A stretch of 6,041 bases of DNA, from IMG/VR virus record IMGVR_UViG_2667527895_000005; one strand, 5' to 3'. The notes under the pieces were generated by a model that searched no databases, was not told the origin of the DNA, and saw only the letters and a list, made by a program, of their open reading frames with translations. Positions 94-2,360 of the stretch are shown one piece after another (position 1 is the first letter of the stretch; the number at the start of each line of letters is the position of its first letter). The DNA is from a virus (Duplodnaviria > Heunggongvirae > Uroviricota > Caudoviricetes). Made by a program: the position numbers and the translations under genes.

Positions 94-972
94 ATGATGA
101 CGTTTAACCTGCGTGAACAACAAAAAAGACTACAGGCGCGAATGGATGAGTTACGGGCAGAGATTGCATTTGCTCAGAAGGGCGAAAAGCCATGGCCTTA
201 TCGTTCCTGCCTGATGCGTGAAGGTCGCGGATATTGCGAAAAACATGGCGAATATCACACGCATATACTGGTGTGGAGCGATCGTAATGGCGAGGACAGA
301 GAAGAAATTTCATGCTGCCCTGACTGCTTAATCGCTGAGGCCAACGATTTGACCATGGAGCTGTCGTCCATCAAGGCGGAAGAGCTGACTGATAACGCCG
401 GAATTGCCCTGCGTTTTCGGGACTGCGAGTTTGATAATTATCTGGAGGTTAATCCTGGCGCAGCCAGAAATCTTGCGGCCTGTCGCCGCTATGCGGAGAA
501 CTGGCCAGATATGCTGGAGAACGGTACCAGTCTTGTTATGACCGGCAGTTGTGGTACCGGAAAAAATCATCTGGCTGTGGCTATGGCAAAACACATCATC
601 CGTAACTATCTGGCCAGTGTGGAGATCACCGACGTGATGCGCCTTACCCGTGCTGTGAAAAATTGCTGGCGGAATGACAGCGAAAAAACAGCGGATGAAG
701 TTATTGAGCGTTATGCGTCAATGGATTTGCTGATCATCGACGAAGTTGGCGTTCAGTTTGGCAGCGCGGCTGAAATGGCTATTTTGCAGGAAATTATCAA
801 CGCCAGGTACGAAAGTATCTTGCCCACCATTCTGATCAGTAACCTCTCACCGGAAGAGTTGTGGGCGTTCATCAGTCCCCGAATTGCCGACAGGATCACA
901 GACGGGGGACGCAACTGGTTGTCGTTTAACTGGCCCAGTTACCGTTCTCGTATCAGAGGTGTGGCTGCATGA
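94..972 (+). CDS. DnaC-like replicative helicase loader (AAA+ ATPase, phage replication protein)
   Basis: Seen: Walker A GSCGTGKNHLAVA and Walker B LLIIDEVG; C-terminus SFNWPSYRSRIRG closely parallels E. coli DnaC (remembered as ...IFNWDSYRSRVTG). SD GAGGTG at 82-87, 6 nt before ATG 94. Frame is open back to position 1, so an upstream start outside the window is not excluded, but frames 2 and 3 stop at 28 and 23, which fits an upstream gene ending there. Stop TGA 970-972 overlaps the next ATG (ATGA). Confidence 0.85.
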   Translation: MMTFNLREQQKRLQARMDELRAEIAFAQKGEKPWPYRSCLMREGRGYCEKHGEYHTHILVWSDRNGEDREEISCCPDCLIAEANDLTMELSSIKAEELTDNAGIALRFRDCEFDNYLEVNPGAARNLAACRRYAENWPDMLENGTSLVMTGSCGTGKNHLAVAMAKHIIRNYLASVEITDVMRLTRAVKNCWRNDSEKTADEVIERYASMDLLIIDEVGVQFGSAAEMAILQEIINARYESILPTILISNLSPEELWAFISPRIADRITDGGRNWLSFNWPSYRSRIRGVAA

Positions 973-2360
973 CAACTCCAGTATGGCGTAACGATGACCT
1001 TGAAGGCGCTGTCATCGGCGCGTTCTTTCTGCGCGGAGCAGATCCTGAAGTGATGGATATTCTGGCCACACTGCCAGCGGACGTTTTTTCTGTACGAGCG
1101 TATCAGGATATCTATACAGGCATCTGCAGACAGGCCCGTGTTTCAGGAGTGATTGACCCCGTGCTGTTGTGTAATGAGATGCCGGAACTTGCCCCGGTGA
1201 TTACTGATACCGGGCGTAAAACCTGGGTGAAGTCTTCACTGGAGCACTATGTTGCAGCGTTGCGGCGCAATGCCGCACTGCGCGATGCAGAAAAAACACT
1301 GAATGAGGCGCTGCAGAAATTACGTGATGCGCATACCTGTGAAGCAGCTGAAGATGCCCTGAAGGATGCGCAGAACATGATGGTCACACTGTCGACAGGA
1401 AAGGGCGTCATTCAGCCGGTACATATTGATGATGTGCTTCCGGAAGTGGTTGAGCGTGTTGAATGCCGGAATCAGGGGCTGGAGAAATCCAGGACGTTGA
1501 TGACCGGTATTGATGAACTGGACGCAAAAACAGGCGGTATGGAGCCCGGAGACCTGGTATTCATTGCCGCCCGTCCTTCGATGGGGAAAACCGAACTTGC
1601 GCTGGACATCATCGACAAGGTGACTGAGCAGGGGCATGGTGTGCTTCTGTTCACCATGGAGATGGCGAACATCCAGATTGGTGAACGTATGGTGTCTGCG
1701 GCTGGAGGGATGCCAGTATCACGCCTGAAATCTGTGGCTCACTTTGAAGATGAAGACTGGACGCGTTTCTCACAAGGGGTGGGGCGGATGACCGGGCGCA
1801 ATATCTGGATGGTGGACCAGGCGAACCTGGCCATTGATGAGATATGCGCAACAACGAAACACCACCTGATTAAATATCCGGAAACGGCGCTGGTGGTGGT
1901 TGATTATCTCGGGCTGATAAAAACCCGAACCACGGGGCGTCATGACCTTGCCGTGGGTGAAATCTCAAAGGGGCTTAAAGGCCTGGCAAAATCCGGTGGT
2001 TTTCCGTTGATTGCGCTGAGCCAGCTCTCCCGCGGTGTGGAGTCCAGACCCAATAAACGTCCCATGAACTCAGACCTGAAAAATTCCGGAGAAATAGAGG
2101 CGGATGCAGACATCATTCTGATGCTTTACAGGGATGAAGTGTACAACCCGGATACGCAGGCCAGGGGCATCGCAGAAATCAATATCACGAAACAACGTAA
2201 CGGTTCTCTGGGAACGATTTACCGGCGTTTTTATAACGGACATTTTCTGCCTGTGGACCAGGAAAGTGCACGGGTGCTTTCCACTCCCATGAAGCCCGGC
2301 AATCCGCGCAGATACAGTAATAAACGAACTGACAGCAGTAAGATGGAGCGTTTCTTTTGA
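969..2360 (+). CDS. Phage-encoded DnaB-like replicative DNA helicase
   Basis: Seen: 463 aa, length and motif order match DnaB. Walker A region IAARPSMGKTELALD (DnaB: VAARPSMGKT); C-terminal LSQLSRGVESRPNKRPMNSDLKNSGEIEADADIILMLYRDEVYN parallels DnaB LSQLNR...[39 protein letters not shown] at 955-960; ATG 969 overlaps the loader stop. Confidence 0.9.
   Translation: MTTPVWRNDDLEGAVIGAFFLRGADPEVMDILATLPADVFSVRAYQDIYTGICRQARVSGVIDPVLLCNEMPELAPVITDTGRKTWVKSSLEHYVAALRRNAALRDAEKTLNEALQKLRDAHTCEAAEDALKDAQNMMVTLSTGKGVIQPVHIDDVLPEVVERVECRNQGLEKSRTLMTGIDELDAKTGGMEPGDLVFIAARPSMGKTELALDIIDKVTEQGHGVLLFTMEMANIQIGERMVSAAGGMPVSRLKSVAHFEDEDWTRFSQGVGRMTGRNIWMVDQANLAIDEICATTKHHLIKYPETALVVVDYLGLIKTRTTGRHDLAVGEISKGLKGLAKSGGFPLIALSQLSRGVESRPNKRPMNSDLKNSGEIEADADIILMLYRDEVYNPDTQARGIAEINITKQRNGSLGTIYRRFYNGHFLPVDQESARVLSTPMKPGNPRRYSNKRTDSSKMERFF

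Follow-up and report, generated by a model that had tools for sequence, protein, structure and literature searches.

A putative Cys3His zinc hairpin in the N-terminal domain of a clade of phage DnaC-like helicase loaders

The 6,041-nucleotide stretch of DNA analysed here (IMG/VR virus record IMGVR_UViG_2667527895_000005; hereafter, the window) is part of a lambdoid prophage remnant that carries adjoining genes for a DnaC-like helicase loader and a DnaB-family helicase. The first 83 residues of the loader form a domain in which four positions, C48, H51, C75 and C78, are conserved throughout the family and probably bind a metal ion. Based on this conservation and on a predicted structure, we propose with moderate confidence that a structural Cys3His zinc would hold together a domain that docks on a DnaB-type helicase, in a loader-helicase module of the type found in phage phiP27 but deprived here of its initiator gene. 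The two halves of this proposal differ in firmness: metal binding by the four residues is quite likely and the helicase-docking role of the domain is close to an even bet. The features that the argument relies on are the following (coordinates of the window):

94..972, plus strand: DnaC-like AAA+ helicase loader of 292 amino acids (domain, profile and structure matches; same call by the Prokaryotic Genome Annotation Pipeline, PGAP, in a 99.9% identical prophage)
94..342, plus strand: N-terminal domain (N-domain), loader residues 1-83, without sequence counterpart in Escherichia coli DnaC
235..327, plus strand: putative Cys3His zinc hairpin, C48 (235-237), H51 (244-246), C75 (316-318) and C78 (325-327), from conservation and structural model
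343..960, plus strand: linker and AAA+ ATPase region, homologous to E. coli DnaC residues 42-242 (hhalign, Foldseek)
544-567, plus strand: Walker A motif, GSCGTGKN
739-744, plus strand: Walker B motif, DE
969..972, plus strand: ATGA overlap of the loader stop codon and the helicase start codon, read from the sequence
969..2360, plus strand: DnaB-family replicative helicase of 463 amino acids, with N-terminal domain, linker and RecA-type C-terminal domain (Pfam, NCBIfam, PHROG)
82..87, plus strand: Shine-Dalgarno-like GAGGTG, 6 nucleotides ahead of the ATG at 94, read from the sequence

Eight Cys or His residues are found within the N-terminal 80 residues of the loader (C39, C48, H51, H55, H57, C74, C75 and C78). 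A first-pass annotation of the window, made from the sequence alone, had noticed this cluster and likened it to a zinc-binding module. The cluster is real, but the pattern under which it was described (C-x8-H-x3-H-x-H ... CC-x2-C) does not fit the positions of the residues, and only C48, H51, C75 and C78 are conserved among the eight. In an alignment of 34 homologues sharing 53-97% identity, C48, H51, G52, S73, C75 and C78 are invariant and P76 is nearly so, while C39, H55, H57 and C74 are variable. The two knuckles, CEKHG and SCCPDC in the window loader, correspond in the family to CxxHG and, after 23 residues (24 in one protein), to C-x-x-C, almost always in the form CPxC. The searches returned 118 full-length proteins, and all of the 117 genuine homologues among them have this arrangement; the remaining one, P0130, is a spurious repeat protein without the motif. 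Some homologues even have just four Cys and His residues within their first 100 residues. Apart from the four invariant residues the N-domain is approximately 30-40% identical among homologues and, as judged from these alignments, the conservation of the motif is far beyond chance for such a domain. A zinc-binding module in the loader is thus probable.

The predicted structure places these residues where a metal site would be expected. The AlphaFold models are confident, with a predicted local distance difference test (pLDDT) score of 84.7 for the full-length loader and of 79.6 for the N-domain alone. The N-domain comprises a helix (residues 4-29), three strands (40-48, 52-62 and 68-72) and a long helix that starts at residue 76 and continues into the DnaC-homologous linker. 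C48 and H51 flank the turn of strands 1 and 2, and the stretch from the end of strand 3 to the first turn of the long helix contains C75 and C78; a beta-turn and the N-terminus of a helix are the usual geometry of zinc knuckles. The predicted fold of the domain reads as a two-helix hairpin with a small, three-stranded, zinc-pinned beta module at its tip. The first-pass annotation had suggested looking for a Cys4 or Cys2His2 site in such a model: four candidate ligands are indeed placed on a beta-hairpin and at a helix start, but the set is Cys3His.

No known family accounts for this module. A single-sequence search with the N-domain against 1.8 billion representatives returned only fragments of the same family and the spurious P0130, and a profile search with the N-domain returned only truncated or frameshifted family members. 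Neither a Pfam model (E<=1) nor a solved structure (PDB searched with the N-domain by phmmer and by profile) was found for the zinc module. A literature search on zinc and zinc ribbons in helicase loaders found no mention of this module either. Within the searchable literature and annotations, the module of these phage loaders thus seems to be previously undescribed.

The rest of the protein is well placed. The loader matches IstB_IS21 in Pfam (1.5e-15), PHROG 50 ("DnaC-like helicase loader", 1.4e-89) and, over residues 88-289, the E. coli DnaC of the DnaB-DnaC cryo-EM structure (6QEL, 5e-31). A Foldseek search with the full-length model has the DnaC chain 6QEM_G as its top match (9e-14), and the best superpositions are on the DnaC chains of 6QEM and 6QEL. 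In the homologue alignments GTGK, DE, N250, R263 and R267 are invariant, D266 also being conserved. The loader therefore belongs to the DnaC/DnaI/IstB clade of AAA+ helicase loaders. Nevertheless, it is a DnaC-like relative and not a DnaC orthologue, because it reaches just 132.9 bits against the NCBIfam equivalog of chromosomal DnaC (PRK07952), whose cutoff is 357, with a match confined to residues 85-289. The alignment of the loader family with E. coli DnaC by hhalign (probability 99.9%, E 2.5e-31) starts at loader residue 84, which corresponds to DnaC residue 42. Loader residues 84-289 are about 34% identical to DnaC 42-242, and the gene follows an initiator/DnaT-like gene in its family as dnaC follows dnaT in E. 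coli. In contrast, DnaC residues 1-41, which contain no Cys, are replaced in the loader by 83 residues with the helical hairpin and CxxHG...CPxC, and, unlike dnaC, the window gene is followed by its own DnaB-type helicase gene. The first-pass annotation was therefore right that the region has no counterpart at the N-terminus of E. coli DnaC, but the extension amounts to about 45 residues relative to DnaC rather than to the 100 or so that it had assumed.

As start codon of the loader, the ATG at 94 is supported by the PGAP call of the same 292-residue protein in the 99.9% identical E. coli prophage, by the GAGGTG upstream and by the conservation of residues 1-40, in which M1, L13 and F26 are invariant and L20, P33 and W34 nearly invariant among homologues of 53-60% identity. 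The RefSeq annotation of phiP27 (NC_003356.1, L18) starts 40 codons later and yields a protein of 252 residues. This start is too far downstream and drops conserved sequence: the stretch left out of the L18 coding sequence is 94% identical to the window loader and conserved across the family.

The closest precedent for such a domain is the zinc-dependent helicase-binding domain of Bacillus subtilis DnaI, which has another motif and fold. DnaI-N (2K7R; Pfam DnaI_N) likewise presents a Cys3His set in an N-terminal domain ahead of the AAA+ part of a DnaC/DnaI-family loader; its zinc ligands are C67, C70, H84 and C101, and DnaI that has lost the site no longer binds the helicase (PMC2673437, PMC1636449). 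The window loader differs from it in ligand order, spacing and secondary structure, and does not show the C-x2-C-x13-H-x16-C arrangement in four helices and two strands that characterizes DnaI-N. DnaI_N is absent from the Pfam matches of the loader at E<=1, the PDB searches with the N-domain described above did not retrieve the N-domains of 2K7R and 4M4W, and the DnaI chains found in the PDB search align to the loader in its AAA+ part only. Homology to DnaI-N is thus unsupported by any sequence or fold search.

The distribution of the motif was studied in a survey of the loader family that kept one genome per species and resulted in 80 loci. CxxHG...CPxC, with a spacer of 13-24 residues, is kept in relatives down to 34-40% identity, including those of Yersinia, Proteus, Arsenophonus, Rodentibacter, Undibacterium, Comamonas, Cupriavidus, Nitrosomonas and the planctomycete Limnoglobus. 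Among named phages, the motif occurs in AsXd-1 (Aeromonas), Bcep22 (gp28, Burkholderia), UFJF_PfDIW6 and phiPSA1 (Pseudomonas), 1.162.O (Vibrio), Cimandef (Ralstonia) and RCIP0034 (Klebsiella). It is thus found in Beta- and Gammaproteobacteria, in one planctomycete and in phages from six genera. An alignment of 13 distant phage and prophage loaders with E. coli DnaC shows the four ligand residues to be almost invariant in the former and a clean gap in DnaC. The same clean gap is found in the other DnaC-type loaders without the motif, namely those of SPN3UB, the Shigella Stx (Shiga toxin) phage 75/02, 673R7 and YdaV of the Rac prophage. Among 397 phage records with a DnaC-like match, 95 (about a quarter) align across the motif region. 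Alignments to the NCBIfam family PRK08116 repeatedly start a few residues before the first knuckle, all with scores below the cutoff, and this family may share the zinc-type feature.

A DnaB homologue is encoded downstream of the loader only in the 18 closest of the 80 loci, the other 62 having none within 3.5 kb on the strand of the loader, and nearly all of the intact loaders in the survey keep the motif. An adaptation of the zinc module to a phage-encoded helicase is ruled out by these figures, and the feature is peculiar neither to this phage nor to loaders accompanied by their own helicase. Given this wide distribution and the 62 loci without an adjacent helicase, the module is an ancient trait shared by a clade of loaders, and not the product of a local fusion.

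The helicase gene of the window (969-2360) encodes a full-length but divergent phage member of the DnaB family, and not the host orthologue. It matches DnaB_C (3e-72, residues 177-422), the DnaB N-terminal domain (2.4e-5, residues 9-86), TIGR00665 (1.2e-91, residues 8-422 on profile positions 5-424) and phrog_19 (1e-114), and falls below the NCBIfam cutoffs both for DnaB (307.7 bits against 385) and for phage_DnaB (273.7 against 499). The first-pass annotation had thus correctly recognized that the phage encodes both a loader and a full-length DnaB homologue, as well as the ATGA by which the two genes overlap. A loader stop codon that adjoins or overlaps the helicase start is also found in AsXd-1, in PPyecE and in the 18 genome loci. 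The pairing itself is not new, since it is already annotated in phiP27 and Stx phages, and phage-encoded DnaB helicases that replace lambda P have been described in Stx phages (PMC8044961). As in phiP27 and the Stx-converting phages with non-lambda, "Eru"-type regions and a DnaB helicase, the order is initiator, DnaC-like loader, DnaB-like helicase, NinH, Q and lysis genes, and phiP27 L18/L19 share 94% nucleotide identity with the loader and helicase genes of the window. The loader zinc motif is mentioned neither in the annotations of phiP27 and the Stx phages nor in the searchable papers. Unlike in these phages, the initiator gene and everything upstream of it are replaced in the window by the insertion sequence IS911, whose junction gives two further features:

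1..73, minus strand: left end of IS911, with the transposase orfA reading leftwards out of the window; outside the replication module
74..83, plus strand: last 10 bases of the upstream replication-initiator gene (..TF, stop TGA at 81-83), phage homology beginning at base 74

Bases 1-73 are a 100% match to the end of IS911 in Shigella phage SfII, whose adjoining open reading frames (ORFs) are annotated as IS911 ORF A and ORF B, and occur in thousands of copies beside IS3-family transposases in E. coli genomes. The first 200 bases of the window, junction included, are found exactly in the chromosome of Shigella flexneri SFBU1023, in which the IS911 ORFs were found upstream of the same junction. 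From base 74 on, the window is homologous to phiP27 and to a prophage of E. coli CFSAN029787, the latter being 99.9% identical. In that prophage a coding sequence of 302 amino acids ends at the equivalent of window position 83 and matches phrog_270 ("replication initiation protein") at 5e-65; in intact relatives, the third gene, upstream of the other two, encodes an O-like/DnaD-like initiator of about 300 amino acids. IS911 has thus taken the place of all but the last 10 bases of the initiator gene. No initiator homologue was found in the 3.4 kb upstream in the S. flexneri and E. coli loci with an identical loader (SFBU1023 and ECMA0423).

The first-pass annotation had considered the module self-contained, which it is not here because IS911 removed the initiator gene. 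It had also observed that the loader frame is open to position 1; this is so because bases 1-73 are an IS911 end, and the start at 94 stands. A continuation of the loader ORF upstream as a different protein is ruled out by the same junction. The prophage probably lacks its origin and early promoter as well and, with the initiator lost, it is very likely replication-defective. Two observations concern what lies upstream in these loci. In E. coli ECMA0423 the loader is identical but the upstream sequence is different. In S. flexneri SFBU1023 (L009:406-2265), a 619-residue ORF upstream of the IS911 copy is cut by IS911; with its Toprim domain and its weak matches to Hint and LAGLIDADG, it looks like a primase-type replication protein that belongs to an unrelated element and is interrupted by an intein.

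How the loader may work can be outlined from these data. The genes at 94-972 and 969-2360 are the loader and helicase genes of a lambdoid replication module like that of phiP27. By analogy with E. coli DnaC, the DnaC-like linker and AAA+ body presumably oligomerise on a DnaB-type hexamer and open or load it. The N-terminal region that would grip the helicase appears to be built otherwise than that of DnaC: two long helices would form a hairpin tipped by the small three-stranded beta module, which a single zinc ion on C48, H51, C75 and C78 would pin. The role of the zinc would most likely be structural, keeping the helicase-docking domain in shape. In the subclade of the window, the helicase partner is likely to be the phage's own DnaB homologue, presumably co-translated through the ATGA overlap, and in most other members of the clade it would be the host DnaB. 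In this genome the module is decapitated, IS911 standing in place of the initiator gene, so that it cannot start replication on its own.

Some observations weigh against this scheme. Most members of the clade have no adjacent helicase gene. Moreover, four short loaders of 190-209 amino acids from viral contigs (L320, L324, L325 and L327) lack the whole N-domain, their sequence starting directly with the NIPPRF linker, although by their AAA+ part they are members of the zinc-clade lineage. The N-domain must therefore be dispensable in some contexts, or its role supplied in trans.

The genes upstream of the loaders point to another possible partner for the N-domain. The proteins that they encode are very diverse (mean column identity 14%) and mostly replication initiators; by their last 15-20 residues they can be sorted into types that correspond to the type of loader. 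In 232 non-redundant pairs of loader and upstream protein, zinc-type loaders follow [GN]F-x3-[DN]Y-G-x-[TS]..P.W tails in 101 cases and GFRG tails in none, a further 26 coming after other tails, some of which can be recognised as DY-type variants. In 74 cases, loaders that lack the motif follow ..S.PD..IPxGFRG tails. A third tail, ..FIPEDF, goes with loaders of 241-242 amino acids that lack the zinc motif. Examples of initiator endings are ..SGFSEQDYGQSDCNW and ..GAMSDKFGKSSDKLTF, and E. coli DnaT, encoded upstream of dnaC (L003), ends in ..SEPDSQIPPGFRG, that is, ..IPPGFRG. The bodies of the initiators are homologous across both loader classes and may carry either tail. Those of L232 and L259 are 84% identical over all 234 residues, yet their tails and loader types differ, and the same holds for RCIP0034 compared with SPN3UB and for L010 compared with Shigella phage 75/02. 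Since bodies as similar as these carry different tails, the mosaic junction lies just before the tail, which travels with the loader gene. This co-variation is the pattern that would be expected if the tail contacts the loader; linkage could produce it too.

One possibility is therefore that the zinc hairpin, or the whole N-domain, docks the C-terminal tail of the upstream initiator and couples origin recognition to the recruitment of loader and helicase, as lambda O does with P, helicase binding being secondary or located elsewhere. The tail counts and the mobility of the tail with the loader would fit such a contact, but neighbouring genes are co-inherited, so that their co-variation is no proof of it, and in the subfamily to which the window loader belongs the tail has diverged (..SDKFGKSSDKLTF). 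The four loaders without N-domain are again informative: their initiators keep a DY-type tail, so the tail tracks the loader lineage and not strictly the zinc module, which weakens any strict model in which the tail binds the zinc hairpin. For these reasons we regard tail docking as the main function of the domain as unlikely. A broader formulation, in which initiators and loaders of proteobacterial phages would recognise each other by a modular code that matches F-x3-DYG tails with zinc-hairpin loaders and ..IPxGFRG tails with DnaC-type loaders, is slightly less doubtful but should be considered tentative. If the tail does dock on the loader, the zinc-bearing N-domain would be the leading candidate for its receptor. 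The related suggestion of the first-pass annotation, a fused origin-recognition domain, is disfavoured by the separate O-like initiator that intact relatives encode directly upstream.

Alternatively, the module could be a nucleic-acid-binding zinc ribbon comparable to the CHC2 domain of DnaG (zf-CHC2) that helps the loader to recognise single-stranded DNA or the unwound origin, close to the primase-like ribbon also raised in the first-pass annotation. The ligand order is the same (C48-x2-H51-x23-C75-x2-C78 in the loader, C40-x2-H43-x17-C61-x2-C64 in E. coli DnaG), relatives with short spacers of 13-15 residues come near the DnaG spacing, and both modules are small, beta-rich and part of a replication protein that works with DnaB. 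There are also weak, partial Foldseek matches to RadD and to an RNA polymerase III subunit (7d58_I), which carry a zinc finger and a zinc ribbon, respectively, but these matches are not significant (E>0.1). Unlike in DnaG, the second knuckle of the loader leads into a long helix, and there is neither a primase catalytic domain nor a Toprim domain in the loader. Homology to the zinc-binding domain of DnaG was rejected, as the Pfam matches at E<=1 do not include zf-CHC2 and the hhalign probability with the N-terminus of E. coli DnaG is 0.6%. Together with the dedicated initiator encoded upstream in intact relatives, this makes a DNA-binding ribbon quite improbable. It is more improbable still that the four residues bind no metal and are kept as a disulfide or redox switch or for simple packing. 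The AlphaFold models contain no metal ion, as this explanation would have it, but two xx-spaced pairs, one at a beta-turn and one at a helix start, in which exactly C, H, C and C are kept without exception, are the signature of a structural zinc site, the His in the set speaks against a pure disulfide pair, and the bacterial cytoplasm is reducing. A structural zinc in a helicase-docking N-domain is consequently the reading that we retain.

The remainder of the window belongs to the same prophage: from base 74 onward it is 94% identical in nucleotide sequence to the replication and late-regulation region of the Stx2e phage phiP27. The loader (94-972) and helicase (969-2360) genes are followed by an 85-residue ORF, NinH, the Q antiterminator, a masked stretch, holin, a 209-residue ORF, lysozyme and Rz/Rz1. 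Downstream of the Q gene, a GC-rich hairpin with a T run (AAACCCGCCTCCGGGCGGGTTTTTT) at 3368-3395 looks like a terminator read through by Q. The run of N at 3499-3905 starts within a tRNA-like sequence (GGCCCTTTAGCTCAGTT), and the near-identical E. coli prophage has four tRNA genes (Ile, Arg, Thr and Gly) at this position, between the Q and holin genes. The 209-residue ORF (4344-4973), between the holin and lysozyme genes, is a hypothetical protein according to PGAP; it has no Pfam match, and its PHROG matches (phrog_1085) are all to families without an assigned function. Nested in another frame of the Rz spanin gene (5554-5973) is the gene for the Rz1 lipoprotein (5789-5983); Pfam confirms both. 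The lysis region is an ordinary lambdoid cassette with a P21-type holin and lysozyme.

Helicase loading is the committed step of replication initiation, and it is the N-domain that determines the helicase, and possibly the initiator, with which a loader works. Zinc-hairpin loaders are frequent among temperate phages of pathogens, the Stx-converting phages included, and are currently annotated only as "ATP-binding protein". Their N-domain would be a second, putatively independent example after DnaI of a zinc-built N-domain in a DnaC/DnaI-family loader, and among the phage relatives compared here E. coli DnaC is the stripped-down form. The conserved Cys3His module of this large, unnoticed clade offers clean mutational targets. 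According to a 2026 structural study, the recruitment of DnaB-DnaC by DnaT "remains unknown" (PMC13377028). A tail that docks on the loader would explain the purpose of the zinc module and suggest how DnaT hands DnaB-DnaC over to the restart primosome; if the co-variation of tail and loader is functional, both the specificity between initiators and loaders and the link from DnaT to DnaB-DnaC would become testable.

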